Assembly (NCBI GenBank): GCA_963849325.1
Contig: CAWKHF010000010.1
Coordinates: 32,001 to 96,000 of the forward strand
DNA from: an uncultured Planctomycetota bacterium
GTDB lineage: Bacteria > Planctomycetota > Planctomycetia > Gemmatales > Gemmataceae
Direction: 5' to 3'
Length of the DNA stretch: 64,000 bases
The notes beneath the pieces were generated by a model, which was not told the DNA's origin, ran no database searches, and was given only the letters and a program-made list of their open reading frames with translations. The position numbers and the translations under genes were made by a program. Below are positions 37,127-44,229 of the stretch, one piece after another; position 1 is the first letter of the stretch, and each line of letters starts with the position of its first letter.

Positions 37127-38857
37127 TCACAGGGCACTTGCCTGATGGAGCCTGTCCGCAAAGCGGTCGATCAGTGTCTCACGCACGAGCTTGTCCACTT
37201 GGCCGAGCTGCGCGATGGCCAGGAAGCCGTAGTGGATCGTTTTTATGCCGTTGTTCCACAACCCCGGTCGGATTTGCGTCCGCGTCACGACTTGCACGGT
37301 ACGGAAAATCAAATCCCCGCTGTCCGCGACCAGCCAGGAACCGCTACGTCTCATGCCGGAGACTTCGAGAGGCGAGTAGCTCTCGCGCGTCGGGCCAAAC
37401 AGGCTCTCCTTGTAGACCAGCGCGCGGCGATTGGTGAGCACGTAGCAGGTACGCCGGGCCAACTTCCAACGCACCAGCGTCACCGCCGACACGCCCACGG
37501 ACACGAAGAACAGGCCAATCGGAAGCAGGGGGTTGCCCCGTTTCGGCGTCGCCGGGGGAACTACCATCCGCTTGCCTGGCTGGAAGCGCGGCGGCGCGAC
37601 CTTGGGCGGCGGCATCAGCGTGACGGCCAGCCAGAGCAACGCGATCAGAACCCCGACACCGCCCACCGCCAGGTAGCCGCTGCCGCGGACGAGGACCAGC
37701 TTGGGAAGCGGCTGGCCGATCCAGACCGGCATCTCCTTCGGCTCCAATCCCGCCAGTGCCTTGTCCTGGAGGTCCGCCGGGATCGAGCCGTCTGCCCGGC
37801 AGGAGATCGGAGCGTCGGCACCGGCATCGGCCTGACGCGGAGCCATCGGGACGGCGGCCGCGCAGCGGGGACAATGGACCAACTTCCCGGGCAGCGCGGG
37901 CGGCGCCTCGATGGTCGCGCCACAAACACAGACTACCGAGGCCGCCTGGGCCGGCCGCTGTCGATCGTCGCGGTTGGACGCGGCGGGTTGCGGCGTGTCC
38001 AGCGCTTGCTCGAGCGGCAGCAGCAACCTCGTGCGGATGAGGTCTTCCACTTCGCGCACCTGGTCGAGGCACATGAATCCGCGCGGGACTCGCTGGGGCG
38101 AGTTGGACAGGCCGCCGATCGAGTTTTGCTGGAGGAAGGAGCCGGTATTCAGATTGAGGGTATTTCCGGGGAGAACGAATTCGTATCCCAAGATCAAATC
38201 GCCCGCGCCGGGGACGGTGGCATGGCCCCGGCGCTCCAGGCCGAGTAGCTGCTGCGGGAGGTAGCTGCGGGCCACAGGCGCCCGTTGCCACACCGACGGC
38301 TCGACGAGCAGCGCGCGGCGGTTGGTGACGACATAGCAATATCGGCAGGATTTCGCCGGGTTGACCAGCAAGGGGAGCAGGAAAACCAGTCCGATCACCC
38401 CCAGGGCGCCGGCGAATACGTAGCCAAACAGCTGTCCGCCACCCTGTTTCGCCGGCTGCCCGCCTGCCGACGAGACCAGCATGAACCCGACGAGGATGAC
38501 GGAGAGGAGGATCAATCCCCCGCCCATCACCGGCAGCATCGGATTGCGCGGATGGACCTGAGGATTGCGCGACGGCCGACCCAGCCAGAGCATTTTTTCA
38601 TCGCCGGTCAGCTCCTTCTCGACAGCCAGGCGGAAGGAGTCCGGGATCTCCAACTCCGCGAACGTTTGCGCGGTCGGCGGCCGCAGGTTCGAGGGCGCAA
38701 CGGCGTCTACGGGGGGGACGCGGACGACGGCGCTGTTCGGTTCGCCCTGGCCGGGCAGCTGTTCGCGGCTCGCGGAGCACGACAGGTTAGCTCCTTCCGT
38801 GGAGCCACCTGCTTCGGTCGGACGACCACCCACGGACGAGAGGGTGTTTGCATTCAT
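37127..38857 (-). CDS. Membrane protein with two tandem 2TM plus PH-like modules separated by a zinc ribbon
   Basis: Internal repeat WxGxP...CYV(V/L)TNRRAL...SY.P...GDLI...GF occurs twice, with a central CVC...CPRC. Confidence 0.75.
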   Translation of the reverse strand: MNANTLSSVGGRPTEAGGSTEGANLSCSASREQLPGQGEPNSAVVRVPPVDAVAPSNLRPPTAQTFAELEIPDSFRLAVEKELTGDEKMLWLGRPSRNPQVHPRNPMLPVMGGGLILLSVILVGFMLVSSAGGQPAKQGGGQLFGYVFAGALGVIGLVFLLPLLVNPAKSCRYCYVVTNRRALLVEPSVWQRAPVARSYLPQQLLGLERRGHATVPGAGDLILGYEFVLPGNTLNLNTGSFLQQNSIGGLSNSPQRVPRGFMCLDQVREVEDLIRTRLLLPLEQALDTPQPAASNRDDRQRPAQAASVVCVCGATIEAPPALPGKLVHCPRCAAAVPMAPRQADAGADAPISCRADGSIPADLQDKALAGLEPKEMPVWIGQPLPKLVLVRGSGYLAVGGVGVLIALLWLAVTLMPPPKVAPPRFQPGKRMVVPPATPKRGNPLLPIGLFFVSVGVSAVTLVRWKLARRTCYVLTNRRALVYKESLFGPTRESYSPLEVSGMRRSGSWLVADSGDLIFRTVQVVTRTQIRPGLWNNGIKTIHYGFLAIAQLGQVDKLVRETLIDRFADRLHQASAL

Positions 38858-39077
38858 GGCGACTCCCCATTATCCCAAAGTACCGGTTCACGGAGCCGCG
38901 AAAGTATAGGCCGTGAATAAGAAGATCGCAAACATTGCGAAAAGGGGAGGCGCTGGAGAAACATCCGAACGGGACGCCACGGATTTCGGCGGAACCACAA
39001 CCGATGGAATAAGGGTAAGCTCCATCGAGCTTTGCAACGCATTGACCTATTTTCATGTCAATGCGTTGCAGCTTAAC

Positions 39078-40363
39078 CTAATGCGTTGCAGGCGGCGCAA
39101 AGCGAAGAATCGCCCGCTCGCCGTCGTGCCGCTCCTCTGGCTCCTCATCCTTCCAGAATCCGGGCACGATGCCAAGGGTTTCCTGCTCCATAATCAGGCA
39201 ACTCAGGTTGTGGCAGATGATCTTGCACAGCACCTCGTTCACCATCGCTATCTCGTTCTTGCTGGCCACGCTCGTCGCCGAACTTCCGCTTGATTGCCGA
39301 GAAGGTCGATTCGACGTTAGAGCGCTTGTGGTAGTGGGTCATGTACTCTTCCTGCCGCATCTGGAAGTAGTGATAGGCTTTCTCGAAAGCGCCACCGATC
39401 GCGCCTGTGCTGTTGGACTTGAAGGCGATGAACGCCTGAGCGCCGCACTTCAGCTACTTCCTCAAAGTTCTCCACGGAGAGGTAAGCCTTGTCCGCAGAG
39501 ACTTCGCCGATCTCGAAATGAGTCTTCGTCTCCTTCACGAGCGGAACGAATTGCGGGCAGTCGTGTGCATCCTTGTCCAGAATGCGGACGGCGGTAACGA
39601 CGTTCGTTTTCACGCCAGAGGCAATGTGCGTCTTCACCCAAATGCCGCGCGTCGCGGGTGATGCCGTACTTCTGATCGTACCATCGTTCATAAACGCAAG
39701 TGCTGAATCCGCTACTGTCGATGGCGAAGTCTCGCTCAACAGAGCGGAGCGGTCGGGCGCTGTAGCCGATGAGTTCCTTGAGGATCGGCGTGTAGTACGG
39801 GTCTGTCAAAAAGGCCGTCGCCTTTATGCCGGGTATCGGTCTGCTGATGAATCCCTTTTCGTAAGCCTCAAGCAAGTCCGTGGAGAAACGCCGGGCGCTG
39901 TAACCGCAGTACACCTTGTAGGCCATCGTGAAAATCGCATCAGAGACCGCGTGCGGCTTCTGGCCGGTCGTGCTTGCCGGGCGTCCCGCTCCGGCACAAG
40001 GCGGCAGAGGTCGTGCAAAAGGACGCGCAGACGACACTTCTCCGTAGCCTGCGCCATGTTGTACGCTGGCCAGTCCTGCTTGTAAGTCTTCCGCTCCGTC
40101 AGCGTAATCGTCTTCGTCTCAATCACGGTTCCGTCCGGCAGCACGTCCCGCTTGTGGACGATTGAAGCGGCGTAGTAGTGCTTGCAGGTGTTGCCGCCGT
40201 CCGTGTGGTCCAAGCAGGTGCAGGTCTTCGCTTCCAGGTTGACGCGGTACGTCGCGTTACCGCTTTTGTTCGATTGACTCGGAACGAGCCAAGTGCCATC
40301 GTTCAGACGGTTCAGGCGACAGGTCGCCGCGATGATGAGGCCGCGTTCTTCTCTGGCGTCCAT
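39078..40363 (-). CDS. DDE transposase (IS4/IS5 superfamily) with N-terminal SWIM zinc finger (frameshifted)
   Basis: SWIM CTC-x9-CKH, D1 FAIDSSG, WVKTH, D2 SADKAY, and YREK signature YHKRSNVESTFSAIK. Confidence 0.9.
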
Positions 40364-40378
40364 ATCAGTTGCCCCTTG

Positions 40379-40413
40379 ACTACCAATCTATACTAATAGT
40401 ATAGATTGGTAGT
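40379..40413. promoter_or_regulatory. Perfect 35-bp AT-rich palindrome in divergent promoter region (candidate operator)
   Basis: actaccaatctatacta-a-tagtatagattggtagt. ttgact and ttgaca -35-like boxes lie at 40376 and 40416. Confidence 0.7.
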
Positions 40414-40472
40414 TATTGACAATCAAGGGCAAGAGGATATATTTTTAGTATATCCTTTAAGGGAGTTGACTA

Positions 40473-40645
40473 ATGGACGAGAAAAAAATCGGCATGGTGC
40501 AACTACTCGGTTGTCGCTGCCGCTGTGGTCACGAGTGGTTGCCGCGCAAAGCAGAGAAGCCGCGCGTCTGTCCGAAGTGCAAGAGCAGAACTGGGATCGA
40601 CCTCGCAAGTTCGTGGGCAAGGCCAAAAAGAACGGGCAGAAATAG
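40473..40645 (+). CDS. Small basic zinc-ribbon protein, ~57 aa (one indel)
   Basis: GGAG RBS, then MDEKKIGMVQLLGCRCRCGHEWLPRKAEKPRVCPKCKS-(shift)-NWDRPRKFVGKAKKNGQK*. Confidence 0.7.
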
Positions 40646-40833
40646 GACGCGGATTCGGTCTGGCTCATGAACGCTTGACACGTCGATATGTCTTTTGGTT
40701 CATCCGTCGCTGAATCGTCGAGCATAGCAGCTAAGTAGCGAGTGCTACAGCGACGAATAGCACAGAACAATACTCGACGATTCTTGTTGAATATAACCTA
40801 TTAAAAACCATGAACTAATGACAGGACTCGACG

Positions 40834-42399
40834 ATGCCACAGTTAGAATTCGACTGGAATCCTGAGCCGCAAAGCCGGCTAGAACTGCTCACCGTCGAGG
40901 ACATCTTTGAACAAGCTGACCAGCAATTGCTTGAGGCTCTCAGAGAAGACCGGAGGTTAGAAAGGAAGCCTCCAGGCTACTCAGGTGAACCCCTAGGCGA
41001 GTACCTCTCCATGTGGGCCAACACCGCGCCCGATGGAGGGTTGATCTGCTTGGGAATGGAGGATGATGGTACACTGACGGGGTGCCATTCTCTCAGCCAG
41101 ATTCAACTGAATAGATTAGAGGCACTGCAAGACCTGTGCCCAGATGCCCGATGCGAGACGAAGCGCATTGGCATTAGCACGCCAGACGGAACCGCGAGTT
41201 ATGTGGTGCTTGTCCGCGTGCGTTACCAAAAAGAGCGAGTTGCCAAGACACCGCAGGGCAAAGCATTTATCCGGCGCGCTGATCGCAAACACAAACTTTC
41301 GGCAGAAGAAGTCAGGGAGCTTTCGGTTGATAAAGGCGAAGTGCAATTCGAGCAAGAGCCGTGCAAGCAGATCGTATATCCGCAAGATTACGACCATGAT
41401 GCGATTCGATCATTTGCGGCTAGTCTCCGGGAACGCCTAGAATTAGTCACTCAGATTTCTGACGAAGAGGTTCTTGCTGTAAGGCACTTGGGGACTGTTG
41501 GCACGGACGGTAAATTCCTCCCTAACATTGCTTGCGCTTTACTCTTCGCAAATGAGCCGGACAAGGTGGTTCCTGGATGTAAAATTAGGTTTCTGCGGTT
41601 CGACGGAGAAACGGAAGGTACGGGTGATAGGTTCAATGCAGTCAAAGATATTTGGATCGAAGGTCTGAGTGTCCCACGATTGATCCACAAGGCCGAACAG
41701 ATTCTTGACGCACATATCAGGACGTTTGCACCGCTTGAAAAGGACAAGAAGTTTCGTGCCTCTCCAGAGTATCCAAAGGCTGCATGGTATGAGGCCATAG
41801 TGAACGCTTGCGTTCACAGGTCGTATGGGAATGGGCTGCGGAATATGACCATTTATGTGAAGATGTTCGACGACAGACTGGTAATAGAAAGTCCTGGTCC
41901 TTTCTTGCCCTTCGTGACTCCCAAGAATATCTACGGAACATCTAACCCGCGCAATCCGAAGTTGATGGGAGCTATGTACTTCATGAATTTCGTAAAAATG
42001 GCCGCAGAGGGAACAAGACGAATGCGAGATACGATGAAAGCAGCAAACCTTCCCGAACCTGAGTTCGCGCAGAAAGAGGAAATAAGTTATTCGCGGGTTC
42101 GCGTTACCTTGCGAAACAATATCCGCCAGCGGCGAGTGTGGGTTGACCTTGATGCGGTAGCGATAGTCGGAGCTGCCCTTGCAAGTAGTTTGGACGAAAA
42201 GGAGAAACGAATCATCAACTACACTGCTGAACACGGAAAAATTAATGTAACGGACGCAGCTCGAATTGCCGAAGTCGGCTGGGCAACAGCCAAGCGGATT
42301 CTTGAACGATTGGTGAAGCGAAGTATCCTTGAACATCACCACAGCGCGAATATCGAGCGCGATAGCAAGGCATTCTACAAGCTACCAGCGGTCAAGTAA
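40834..42399 (+). CDS. Schlafen/AlbA_2 + HATPase_c_4 (RecG-C-like) + winged-HTH protein
   Basis: EDRRLERK (E-x4-E-x-K), WANT..GG...GMEDDG, EAIVNACVHRSY, ESPG, PRNP, and a C-terminal wHTH. Confidence 0.85.
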   Translation: MPQLEFDWNPEPQSRLELLTVEDIFEQADQQLLEALREDRRLERKPPGYSGEPLGEYLSMWANTAPDGGLICLGMEDDGTLTGCHSLSQIQLNRLEALQDLCPDARCETKRIGISTPDGTASYVVLVRVRYQKERVAKTPQGKAFIRRADRKHKLSAEEVRELSVDKGEVQFEQEPCKQIVYPQDYDHDAIRSFAASLRERLELVTQISDEEVLAVRHLGTVGTDGKFLPNIACALLFANEPDKVVPGCKIRFLRFDGETEGTGDRFNAVKDIWIEGLSVPRLIHKAEQILDAHIRTFAPLEKDKKFRASPEYPKAAWYEAIVNACVHRSYGNGLRNMTIYVKMFDDRLVIESPGPFLPFVTPKNIYGTSNPRNPKLMGAMYFMNFVKMAAEGTRRMRDTMKAANLPEPEFAQKEEISYSRVRVTLRNNIRQRRVWVDLDAVAIVGAALASSLDEKEKRIINYTAEHGKINVTDAARIAEVGWATAKRILERLVKRSILEHHHSANIERDSKAFYKLPAVK

Positions 42400-42495
42400 T
42401 AGAAATCAACCTTGAATGCGTTGCAGCCAGCCTCAAAACATTGCAGCTCGCCAATGCGTTGCAAAGCTGCCCCATCGGTCAGGCGCAGCGTTTTG

Positions 42496-43551
42496 TCAGA
42501 TGGGCTTGGGGATCTTGGCCTGTTCCAGGTTGAGCAAATATTGCTTACGCCGTAGACCGCCGCCATAGCCGCCGAGAGCGCCGCTCTTGTTGACGACGCG
42601 GTGACACGGGATCAGGATGCCGATTCGGTTGAACCCGTTCGCGCGGCCGACCGCCCGCACCGCCTTCGGATCGCCGATGGCCGCCGCCAACTCGTGATAC
42701 GAACGGGTCTCGCCGTAAGGGATAAGTAACAACTGCTCCCAGACTCGCCGCTGGAAGGGCGTGCCGGGGAACACCAGCGGGACCGAAAACTCGCGGAGGG
42801 TGCCGGCGAAGTAGCTGTCGAGTTCCACCCGCAGCCGTTCGAGGTGCGGGTGGGCGCCGGGCAACACCGGCACCCGGAACAACCGCCGCACCGTCTCGAA
42901 CTGAGCCTCCAGCATCCGCCGATCCGTAAACTCCAGCAAACAGACTCCGCCGTCGGTGGCACCGGCCACGAGTGGGCCGAGCGGACTCTGCAACCAGGAG
43001 AGGAACACGCAGTCGTGGCCATGGCAGTCGCCCGGCGTGCAACCGACCGACTGCCCGAACGCCTCGCGGAAGCCGCTGAGAGATTCGTAGCCACTGGAAT
43101 AGGCGGCGCCGTCCAACGTCCCTCCGTTTCGGATGTCGGTGAAGGCGACCGAAAGCCGTCGGGCACGGGTGTAAGCCTGGAACGTCATGCCGTAGTGTTT
43201 GAGGAAGTGACGGCGGACGGTCGCCGGATCGATGCCGAGAGCCTGAAGGTTGCCATCGGTGATTCGCGCGGAAGGCTCGGCCTCGACCCGCGCCAGGAGC
43301 GCCGTCGCCCATTCCGGCTGGTTCGCCAGGGCCATCGGCCGACAGCGCTTGCACGGTCGGTAGCCGGCAAAGAGCGCTGTGGCGGCTGACGGGAAGTATT
43401 CGACGTTCTTGGGCAATGGACTCCGTGCGGGGCACGTCGGGCGGCAGAAGATTCCGGTCGTGCGGACCGCAACGAAGAAGATGCCATCGTAGGCGGGATC
43501 TCGGCGGAGATACGCCCTTTCCATTTCGACGACGGGTGGAAGTGTGTTCAT
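42496..43551 (-). CDS. ada: Bifunctional Ada regulator / O6-methylguanine-DNA methyltransferase
   Basis: TTGIFCRPTCP, RPCKRC, AraC HTH and IPCHRV active site. Confidence 0.95.
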   Translation of the reverse strand: MNTLPPVVEMERAYLRRDPAYDGIFFVAVRTTGIFCRPTCPARSPLPKNVEYFPSAATALFAGYRPCKRCRPMALANQPEWATALLARVEAEPSARITDGNLQALGIDPATVRRHFLKHYGMTFQAYTRARRLSVAFTDIRNGGTLDGAAYSSGYESLSGFREAFGQSVGCTPGDCHGHDCVFLSWLQSPLGPLVAGATDGGVCLLEFTDRRMLEAQFETVRRLFRVPVLPGAHPHLERLRVELDSYFAGTLREFSVPLVFPGTPFQRRVWEQLLLIPYGETRSYHELAAAIGDPKAVRAVGRANGFNRIGILIPCHRVVNKSGALGGYGGGLRRKQYLLNLEQAKIPKPI

Positions 43552-43641
43552 GCCGTAGATGTATCACGTCAACCGACCGTATCGCTACCGGTTTTCAGGC
43601 GCGGTCATCGGAAACTTCATCCCCCGCGGATTCCTCTACCG

Positions 43642-43684
43642 CCGAACCCTTTCTTCGAGCGCGGCGGCGGACCCTAACACCGCT
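43642..43684. repeat. 43-bp imperfect direct repeat, copy 1
   Basis: 37/43 identical to 44187-44229, with the first 20 bp identical. Confidence 0.8.
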
Positions 43685-43781
43685 TCCGGCGTCTTCGACT
43701 GTGACTTTCGACGCCTCGATGACTGCAGTGTGGACACCAAAGTTACCGGCTTACTCTTCTCGTGCCAAGAGGCGACTGCGG

Positions 43782-44171
43782 TTAAAAGCGAATCCCTTCC
43801 GCGGTGAAGAACGAAGTTGCCAGCCAATTCAGGCCATGCCAACCGGCGGACAACAACCATACAACGCCTACAACCACGCCGAACACTCCGAGCCGGCCAC
43901 GCTTTCCTGCCCAACACAACGCCACGTAAGCCAAACCCTCCATCGCTATCGCTGTGCCAATGTACGGCCGGAAATGGCGGGCGACGTACTTGTCGATAGC
44001 CAGCCGCTCCGGGATGTCGAGGTCGGTGCCCCACTGGGATAAATCCAGTTCACTGACCCGCTGCTCGCCAGCGGCCACCACCGCCCAAGCAGCCAGGACG
44101 AAGCCAAGCGCCAGCAGGGGCAGTATCCAGTTCCGCTTGAAGAGCCAACTCGTAGCAGATGCGGTTGCCAT
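43782..44171 (-). CDS. Small hypothetical membrane protein (3 TM)
   Basis: AAGGAGG RBS before MATASATSWLFKRNWILPLL. Fused to the upstream ORF in the track, probably by an indel. Confidence 0.65.
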   Translation of the reverse strand: MATASATSWLFKRNWILPLLALGFVLAAWAVVAAGEQRVSELDLSQWGTDLDIPERLAIDKYVARHFRPYIGTAIAMEGLAYVALCWAGKRGRLGVFGVVVGVVWLLSAGWHGLNWLATSFFTAEGIRF

Positions 44172-44186
44172 CCGTGGCCTCCTTCT

Positions 44187-44229
44187 CCGAACCCTTTCTT
44201 CGAGCGTGCTGGCGCACCCGAACGCCGCT
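44187..44229. repeat. 43-bp imperfect direct repeat, copy 2
   Basis: Matches 43642-43684. Confidence 0.8.

Follow-up and report, generated by a model that had tools for sequence, protein, structure and literature searches.

A probable 3.4-kb unit transposon with a Schlafen-like cargo gene in a planctomycete contig, and the SWIM-IS903-like elements related to it

The element described here lies in a 64-kb window, which is the whole stretch of DNA that was analysed (64,000 nucleotides of contig CAWKHF010000010.1 from an uncultured bacterium of the Gemmataceae). It is the 3,441-bp segment 39028-42468, which runs from one terminal inverted repeat (TIR) to the other and encloses three genes: a transposase gene with a SWIM zinc finger and a DDE domain, a very small gene for a zinc-ribbon (Zn-ribbon) protein, and a Schlafen-like cargo gene. 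The segment is very probably a unit transposon (a "transporter IS", IS denoting insertion sequence) that was inserted whole between ada and the next gene, with formation of a 9-bp duplication, and the copy would be a decayed member of a family of cargo elements that is called SWIM-IS903-like below. The features of the locus are collated in the following list (window coordinates; strand; description; basis of the assignment):

39019-39027; no strand; left copy of the target-site duplication (gctccatcg); direct reading, eight of nine positions identical to 42469-42477
39028-39044; plus; transposase-proximal TIR, AGCTTTGCAACGCATTG; inverted-repeat search, 17 nucleotides (nt), 100% complementary
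39033-39090; no strand; proximal subterminal array with the core TGCAACGCATT (39033-39043) and two copies of its reverse complement (39060-39070, 39080-39090); motif count
39078-40363; minus; SWIM + DDE_Tnp_1 transposase gene, broken as assembled; ungapped tblastn against the relative P0001, and Pfam
40377-40415; no strand; palindrome and candidate operator, 17 perfect bp per arm (40379-40395 and 40397-40413) or 19 with one mismatch; inverted-repeat search
40416-40443; plus; promoter-like site facing the Zn-ribbon gene, TTGACA, 16-nt spacer, TATATT, 11 of 12 positions; consensus match only
40473-40645; plus; gene of about 57 codons for the Zn-ribbon microprotein, its frame changing once near 40588; comparison with the related locus L084
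40834-42399; plus; intact cargo gene of 521 amino acids (aa), with Schlafen/AlbA_2 and HATPase_c_4 domains and a C-terminal tail resembling a helix-turn-helix (HTH); Pfam, PADLOC and homologue search
42415-42425; plus; distal subterminal repeat at position 44 from the tip, oriented like the terminal site; motif count
42452-42468; minus; transposase-distal TIR; inverted-repeat search, same pair as 39028-39044
42469-42477; no strand; right copy of the target-site duplication (gccccatcg); direct reading

Ends and transposase

The two TIRs form the one outstanding inverted pair of the inverted-repeat search. Five occurrences of the 11-nt core AATGCGTTGCA were counted in the window, each within 65 nt of one of the two tips; the expectation determined by shuffling was 0.02, and none of 100 shuffles reached five. 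The GC content amounts to 0.47-0.60 within the element and to 0.64-0.72 in the flanks. An initial annotation of this DNA had reported perfect 17-bp TIRs with flanking 9-mers agreeing at eight of nine positions, three enclosed genes of lower GC than the host, and a transposase gene reading towards the left end with the other two genes reading towards the right; all of this was found again at the same coordinates. The same annotation had called the element complete, which holds for its borders and not for its transposase gene as assembled. Searches of the element for Rfam families (E<=0.1) and for tRNA genes gave no match.

In the comparison with P0001, an intact relative of 425 aa, the transposase gene falls into five colinear pieces in three frames (70-94% identity), with frame changes near 39983, 39653, 39448-39451 and 39273, that is, four frame-breaking indels. 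Codons for the D, D, E and YREK residues have been retained, and the motifs FAIDSSGF, SADKAY and YHKRSNVESTFSAIKRKFG are present. The fragments were matched by DDE_Tnp_1 of Pfam and by SWIM at 18.4 bits, below the cut-off of 19.6; P0001 gave DDE_Tnp_1 (PF01609) at E 2.7e-20, with SWIM again just below the cut-off. When 37 diverse members were aligned, the SWIM signature CxCxnCxH (C47, C49, C59 and H61) and D290 proved invariant, and D215, Y343, R346, E350 and K357 nearly invariant. Family transposases of about 420 aa consist of an N-terminal domain of about 200 aa with the SWIM zinc finger and an IS5/IS903-type DDE domain with YREK. An AlphaFold model was built from the 37-sequence alignment (mean predicted local distance difference test score, pLDDT, 89.3; an earlier model from 16 sequences, pLDDT 54, was not used). 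The predicted fold was matched by Foldseek to DDE transposases, among which Tn5 ranked first by template-modelling (TM) score (0.45/0.42) and ISCth4 of the IS256 family by E-value (1.1e-5, TM 0.30). The DDE domain would move the element by an IS903-type reaction.

The best NCBIfam model was transpos_IS5_2 (NF033579), with which four intact family members scored 97-108 bits against a cut-off of 140; the 309-aa transposase of ISAba10, which we take to be filed in the IS903 group, is scored at 363 bits by this model and a Sulfitobacter IS5-family transposase at 368 bits. A search of 72,556 plasmids returned, as best matches, IS5-family transposases with 23-31% identity over the catalytic part only, and none of the 158 plasmid records covered 80% of the transposase. 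With the N-terminal fragment as query, 477 longer proteins were obtained at E<=0.001 among 1,282 candidates, almost all of them 415-435 aa long and 63-94% identical over the N-terminus. The size of the family was determined with the N-terminal 200 aa against representatives of 50%-identity clusters, of which 1,702 matched at E<=1e-3, 791 at E<=1e-10 and 82 at E<=1e-30.

The ends of 22 delimited elements were compared after orientation by the transposase, positions being counted from each tip and one mismatch being allowed. The terminal site stands at position 6 at both ends. At the proximal end it is followed by two inverted copies of the core at about 35 and 55, spaced by about 20 bp; in the window the sites lie at 6, 35 and 55 in the orientations a, b and b. 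Both proximal subterminal sites are present in seven of the 22 elements (at 35/55 in the window element, C6A, L021, L022, L028 and L084; at 33/53 in the G002 element) and at least one of them in 13, six of which have one of the two; the other nine carry the terminal site alone at this end. Distal ends have direct copies at 24 (L021, L026, L029 and L061), at 44 (the window element, L023, L017 and L039) or at both positions (L022 and L063). The core sequence varies by element (TGCAACGCA, TGCTCCGCA, TGCACCACA, TGTATCATA and others) at constant positions, a pattern to be expected if the sites are bound by a protein with which they co-evolve; the N-terminal SWIM domain may be what reads these repeats. 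The two ends of the window element match the proximal and the distal pattern, respectively, which speaks against a chance or composite pair.

Related elements and known systems

A scan of the genome collection yielded 78 loci, all of which were searched for a GCTTT-anchored inverted pair with a 9-bp flanking repeat. This anchored search replaced a free inverted-repeat search, in which many chance pairs arose; it is blind to differing tips, and its match in L067 looks spurious. TIRs agreeing at 14 or more of 20 positions together with a duplication of 9/9 were found in nine loci (L021, L023, L046, L055, L061, L063, L075, L082 and L084), and in L028 with a duplication of 8/9. The elements of these ten loci measure 2,618-5,352 bp, and the transposase start lies 1.3-3.6 kb from the far end. 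In five further loci the flanking repeat is displaced by one base (8/8 in L022, L026, L041 and L047; 7/8 in L029). The tips of the relatives begin GGCTTTGC and are of the GGCTTTG type. Family transposases were also met on three viral contigs of IMG/VR (L115-L117), two of them of about 100-120 kb, and L117 contains a 4,439-bp element with a 9/9 duplication. Conserved TIRs, 9-bp duplications and variable cargo, for which the initial annotation had proposed that homologues be examined, thus occur together in ten of the 78 loci and on one viral contig.

Evidence of movement is strongest in a genome of the same genus (G002), where four copies are 99.86-99.93% identical over 4,415-4,422 bp, cargo included, and stand at different sites. 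Three of them have 9-10-bp duplications of their own (TCCTGAGCG, GTGAGGGGT and CTCTTCGAG(G)); the fourth is flanked by sequences that agree at only 5/9 positions. This element encodes an intact 424-aa transposase (P0008), a 76-aa HTH protein and proteins of 319 and 323 aa. A fifth copy shares only the transposase part, at 87% identity. Whole units, cargo included, thus move in this family. As a separate observation, near-identical short repeats surround two copies on G002 contig C5, about 68 kb apart (L111 and L112; ..gcgtttcagggggtgtga.. and ..gtgaggggtgtgaaatgaaacgct..), one of which lacks a matching duplication; these flanks suggest recombination between copies or a preferred repeated target.

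The window's own genome (G000) contains two further cargo elements in tandem on contig C6, namely A (C6A, 440993-447067, 6.1 kb) and B (C6B, 447077-450791, 3.7 kb), in the layout CCGCCATGC - A - CCGCCATGC - B - CCGCCATGC (C6:440984-450800, locus L095:84-9900). Since the three 9-mers are identical, element B must have used exactly the 9-bp target of A, a hint either of insertion beside an end already in place or of a strong preference for this local target. Their transposase genes share 81-84% DNA identity with that of the window and are also broken. A fourth member of this genome (C6:233445-235958) is more distant, has an open transposase frame, ends in GGCTTTGTTGCCAAAC and contains 1.2 kb of extra DNA. 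It is doubtful whether this intact member could mobilise the window element in trans, its ends being divergent beyond the first 8 bases. At C7:194470-194567 (L096:470-567) a pair of family ends, GGCTTTGCCACGCATTAG ... CAATGCGTGGCAAAGCC, spans 98 bp and encloses no gene, an arrangement reminiscent of a miniature inverted-repeat transposable element.

Table 2 of PMC3281130 gives IS5/IS903-group elements as about 1,050 bp long, with one transposase gene and a 9-bp duplication, and the other IS5 groups as making duplications of 2-6 bp. The family shares with the IS903 group the DDE_Tnp_1 catalytic domain with the spacing Y-2-R-3-E-6-K, the best NCBIfam model (the same as for ISAba10) and the 9-bp duplication (8/9 in the window, 9/9 in nine loci and in L117, and the separate duplications of the G002 copies). 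TIRs of 15-27 bp with GGCTTTG tips are likewise common to both: AGCTTTGCAACGCATTG in the window and GGCTTTGC in relatives stand beside the ISAba10 ends GGCTTTGTTGCA and GGCTTTGTTGCATAAATA. On the strength of the catalytic core, the tips and the duplication, the family is placed next to the IS903 group of the IS5 family. It differs from that group in a transposase of about 424 aa with the additional SWIM domain of about 200 aa (against about 300 aa, 309 in ISAba10), in scores that stay below the curated threshold (97-108 against 140 bits), and in asymmetric subterminal arrays, a size of 2.6-6 kb and cargo (3,441 bp and three genes in the window). The suggestion of the initial annotation that the family might be unclassified therefore stands in so far as no curated IS model fits, and requires amendment in that the ends, the duplication and the best profile put the core beside IS903.

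The best-known SWIM-bearing transposases are those of Mutator-like elements (MULEs) and IS256, and MULE transposases carry SWIM C-terminally. Common to these and the present family are a SWIM zinc finger (CxCxnCxH) in a DDE transposase and the first place of ISCth4 among the Foldseek E-values; unlike them, the family is recognised in Pfam by DDE_Tnp_1 and SWIM only and by no IS256 model of NCBIfam, and the TM-score of its predicted fold is 0.30 with ISCth4 as against 0.45 with Tn5.

According to PMC9330008, the transporter IS (tIS) is an established concept, in which passengers and transposase lie inside a single pair of inverted repeats. The present elements resemble it in having one transposase and passengers within one TIR pair and one duplication, and in moving as whole units, as seen in the G002 copies. 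However, tIS are ordinary IS derivatives with acquired passengers, whereas here cargo is normal throughout the family and is accompanied by a recurrent small DNA-binding gene at the junction. The initial annotation had considered passengers uncommon in IS4/IS5-type elements; within the SWIM-IS903-like family they are the rule. Tn7-like transposons have been described as carriers of defence systems (Benler et al. 2021, PMC8649781). Varied, defence-rich cargo and asymmetric ends with several sites are common to both, but the family relies on a single IS5-type DDE transposase, is much smaller, has no TnsA/B/C-like genes within its ends, and shows no evident target selector in its collected duplications. 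In the literature searched, no description of SWIM-bearing IS5/IS903-type cargo transposons was found, and the family looks undescribed in print and is apparently unnamed.

Cargo and junction genes

The cargo of the family was surveyed with 62 open reading frames (ORFs) from 19 regions (17 related loci together with C6A and C6B) against Pfam, and with 48 ORFs, including the cargo gene of the window and three ORFs of the G002 element, against PADLOC. The assignments were as follows:

L055; 902-aa N6_Mtase/Eco57I/HSDR_N enzyme
L063; CfrBI endonuclease and N4/N6 methylase
L029 and L039; PIN toxins
L028; MqsA-like antitoxin
L082; SocA/Panacea; DUF488 and PDC-M19B (PDC-M19A+B)
L021; HTH-Peptidase_M78 / PD-Lambda-2_B
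L017; HNH
L046; 727-aa HATPase_c_3 protein
L041; SDH-type protease
C6A; fused PDC-M06A/B candidate defence protein; MmeI-like methyltransferase fragments; PIN toxin
C6B; unassigned 283-aa protein; Bro-N/PDC-S13 protein

Most of the other cargo ORFs matched no family in these two scans. Restriction-modification genes are represented in L055, L063 and C6A, and toxin-antitoxin and candidate defence genes also belong to the repertoire. The cargo amounts to 1.3-3.6 kb, is exchangeable, and usually opens with a small DNA-binding gene adjoining that of the transposase.

In the window the cargo proper is the Schlafen-like gene. Its product is matched by SLFN_AlbA_2 at 32.0 bits (cut-off 25.3, residues 38-155) and by HATPase_c_4 at 64.2 bits (cut-off 26, residues 339-415). 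The PADLOC profile PDLC02394 for prokaryotic Argonaute (pAgo) systems was matched at E 4.6e-48 over positions 57-445 of 1121, that is, in its Schlafen-like N-terminal part, which bears out the earlier assignment of the cargo as conflict-type; no Argonaute (PIWI/MID) part was found in the match, and no further gene inside the element. A search for homologues gave 1298 with E<=0.001 among 8000 scored, the nearest being 74% identical, and the two domains are common to the homologues, which are named "ATP-dependent DNA helicase RecG", "putative DNA binding domain-containing protein" or "ATP-binding protein" in their sources. The window's genome contains a weak paralogue only. The host may have retained this Schlafen-like ATPase.

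The junction position of the window is held by the Zn-ribbon gene, whose first 39 residues share 82% identity with the intact 55-aa protein encoded in L084, with the conserved tail (NWDRPRKF...) in the next frame. The consensus of these proteins reads ..RCxRCGHEWLPR..PRVCPKCKSPYWDRPR. Pfam and NCBIfam offer no curated family for them: the matches are generic zinc ribbons, nearly all below the cut-off, and the best sequence match in the PDB is Pf0610 (E 0.006). The palindrome of the window overlaps the -10 hexamer of a promoter-like site on the minus strand (40426-40398) that faces the transposase gene. As a side observation, the 190-bp gap that separates the Zn-ribbon gene from the Schlafen-like gene contains a 14-nt inverted repeat (40712-40725 and 40770-40783, 93% complementary), which may represent a terminator or a second operator.

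Junction genes were surveyed in 64 loci with a full transposase N-terminus and sufficient upstream DNA. Directly upstream of the transposase gene there is a small gene, usually divergent, whose product is a Zn-ribbon protein in 17 loci (from Planctomycetota, Acidobacteriota, Verrucomicrobiota, Chloroflexota and one archaeon), a protein resembling ribbon-helix-helix (RHH) factors in another 17, assigned by eye, and an HTH protein in eight. Database matches for the RHH-like class were weak (NikA-like below cut-off in the two tested; RelB at E 0.002). On a quick maximum-likelihood tree of 49 transposases, 20 rows of which had no assigned regulator, the occupant differs between sister rows: the Zn label requires 11 changes over 13 rows and the RHH label seven over eight, both like shuffled labels (as few changes as observed for Zn were reached in 205 of 500 shuffles). 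The idea that regulator type tracks transposase clades was accordingly rejected, except for a clustered Dehalococcoidales HTH group.

Zn-ribbon genes were also sought irrespective of the transposase. The profile matched in 30 of 121 genomes of the host's taxonomic family; a SWIM-DDE transposase lies within 1.5 kb in six of the 17 strongest loci outside the window, and among the other 11, five are short and truncated by contig ends. The microgene is followed elsewhere (L122, L127, L129, L119, L121 and L124) by genes for Fic, Vsr with a C5 DNA methylase, an MmeI-type methylase, Gp49 and AAA_14/DUF4143, and in L122, L127 and L129 no SWIM-DDE transposase is present within 1.5 kb of it. Palindromes of the type TATAC..GTATA recur upstream of Zn-ribbon genes, AGTATAT being present in 15 and TAGTATA in 12 of 31 upstream regions (two of which are the same locus). 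As both strings overlap a -10-box-like sequence, this recurrence is suggestive only.

These surveys bear on whether the Zn-ribbon microprotein could be the transposon's own transposition regulator, repressing or assisting the transposase, and not part of the cargo. The position of the gene immediately upstream of, and divergent from, the transposase gene in 17 of 64 loci across phyla would suit such a role, as would the overlap of the long palindrome with the -10 hexamer of the transposase-facing site. This explanation is nonetheless an unlikely one: the slot is held elsewhere by RHH-like or HTH proteins, the Zn label is distributed on the transposase tree no better than shuffled labels, only six of 17 strong Zn-ribbon loci in other genomes of the taxonomic family have a SWIM-DDE transposase within 1.5 kb, the microgene precedes Vsr with a C5 methylase, Fic or unassigned ORFs elsewhere, and both the active G002 element and the plain IS of L025 are devoid of it. 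Since the gene heads defence-type operons elsewhere, the microprotein is more likely a portable controller that heads conflict-type operons and often rides these transposons than a dedicated transposition factor. It would act at the palindrome of the divergent promoter region and control the cargo operon, possibly also the transposase promoter. The notion of the initial annotation that the element has its own regulator is thus uncertain: the gene does recur beside the transposase (17 of 64), but the occupant of the slot varies between sister transposases, and the microgene also heads restriction-modification, toxin-antitoxin and other defence-type operons with no transposase nearby.

State of the copy and weight of the evidence

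Indels in the broken transposase genes were counted against the intact G002 gene. The window copy has four +1, two -1 and one +3, C6A has nine +1, one -1 and one +3, and C6B has seventeen insertions and three deletions; none of the indels in the three copies lies within a homopolymer. Programmed frameshifting was rejected as an explanation, because the three copies break at different places. With four frame-breaking indels as assembled, the copy of the window is not autonomous, contrary to the initial annotation. The indels, together with the 8/9 duplication, fit an old, decaying insertion, and the copy is probably dead, a fixed remnant in which any surviving function would be that of the cargo.

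A different explanation is that the element is intact and autonomous and that the frame breaks are consensus errors of a long-read metagenome, arising where reads from paralogues or strains pile on repeated genes. It would account for the preponderance of single-base insertions outside homopolymers in the window, C6A and C6B, and for the fact that the unique cargo gene is intact and the genes repeated throughout the family are the broken ones; every catalytic residue is still encoded in the window transposase, and marker completeness in the genus is 74-85% in few-contig assemblies as against 91-97% in many-contig ones. Given the insertion bias and the low completeness of few-contig assemblies, an artefact limited to repeated genes has some, if rather low, probability. 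The decay of the copy is preferred, since long neighbouring frames are intact (ada with 351 aa, the 576-aa ORF and the 521-aa cargo gene), four copies in G002, which was likewise assembled in few contigs, are intact, open frames are seen in two more distant family transposases of the window's genome, and the flanking duplication has drifted to 8/9, as expected of an old insertion.

Several points weigh against the reading of the segment as a decayed unit transposon of a cargo family. The flanking duplication is imperfect. An empty site, for which the initial annotation had proposed looking between ada and the gene at 37127-38857, was not found when 40 relatives were searched at the DNA level with window positions 37200-44200; the matches were to ada and to transposase copies only, and the neighbours of ada in G009 are not syntenic with the window. 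The TIR pair was located for only about 20 loci out of 78, many of the others being cut by contig ends or perhaps having tips invisible to the anchor. Cargo is absent from one relative, L025, a plain IS of 1,589 bp whose TIRs agree at 18/18 positions. The transposase stays under the cut-off of every curated NCBIfam IS model, and the Schlafen-like cargo gene was met in no other family element that was fetched. Finally, the predominance of single-base insertions in all three broken copies is unusual for natural decay and may reflect an artefact of the consensus, in which case the copy would not be a decayed one. These points are set against the ends, the composition and the relatives, the last of which show movement of whole units; the proposal of the initial annotation that one transposon with one transposase holds its passengers within one TIR pair was supported by them.

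It is very improbable that the ends are unrelated or a chance pair and that the genes for the Schlafen-like and Zn-ribbon proteins are ordinary ones of the chromosome or of an island, situated beside a dead IS: the Schlafen-like gene does come from a very common chromosomal family and was seen in no other element of the transposon family, but the perfect 17-nt TIR with the core motif is far beyond chance, the distal and proximal ends carry the distal and proximal repeat patterns of the family, respectively, the flanking 9-mers agree at eight of nine positions, the low GC extends across the whole interval and ends at the tips, and there is no further GCTTTGC-type end by the transposase start.

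A wider interpretation is offered tentatively and is itself rather doubtful. SWIM-IS903-like elements might constitute a major unnamed class of vehicles for defence genes in Planctomycetota, Acidobacteriota, Chloroflexota, Verrucomicrobiota, an archaeon and phages, in which the SWIM domain would read a fixed asymmetric lattice of about 20 bp that tells the ends apart. The Zn-ribbon protein of about 55 aa would then be a new portable controller, comparable to the C-proteins of restriction-modification systems, which at TATAC..GTATA palindromes would time the expression of freshly arrived restriction, toxin or Schlafen-type cargo and perhaps of the transposase. If the family is what it seems to be, a simple one-protein transposase of the IS903 type would routinely ferry restriction-modification, toxin-antitoxin and candidate anti-phage genes among distant phyla of soil and water and into phages, a role so far documented mainly for the far more complex Tn7-like elements. 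Owing to their small size, sharp ends and single protein, the elements are easily delimited in metagenomes as markers of new defence genes, and the same traits make them attractive candidates for compact cargo vectors. The window copy adds little to the family picture beyond a fixed, probably dead member with an intact gene for a Schlafen-like ATPase.

Two minor observations were made. The right neighbour of the element (42496-43551, minus strand) encodes a complete Ada-type regulator/methyltransferase of 351 aa, in which Pfam recognised Ada_Zn_binding, HTH_18 and DNA_binding_1; the stop codon of ada lies 28 bp from the transposon end, and the element sits between ada and a co-directional downstream gene of 576 aa. 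In the transposase genes of a Dehalococcoidales subgroup (L055, L059, L063, L067, L068 and L077), a codon-aligned antisense frame is open over about 500 codons, with 0-1 sense TTA/CTA/TCA codons per gene against 5.5-13.6 expected from neighbouring ORFs; over all 48 transposase genes the depletion of these codons is mild (6.6% vs 9.3%).

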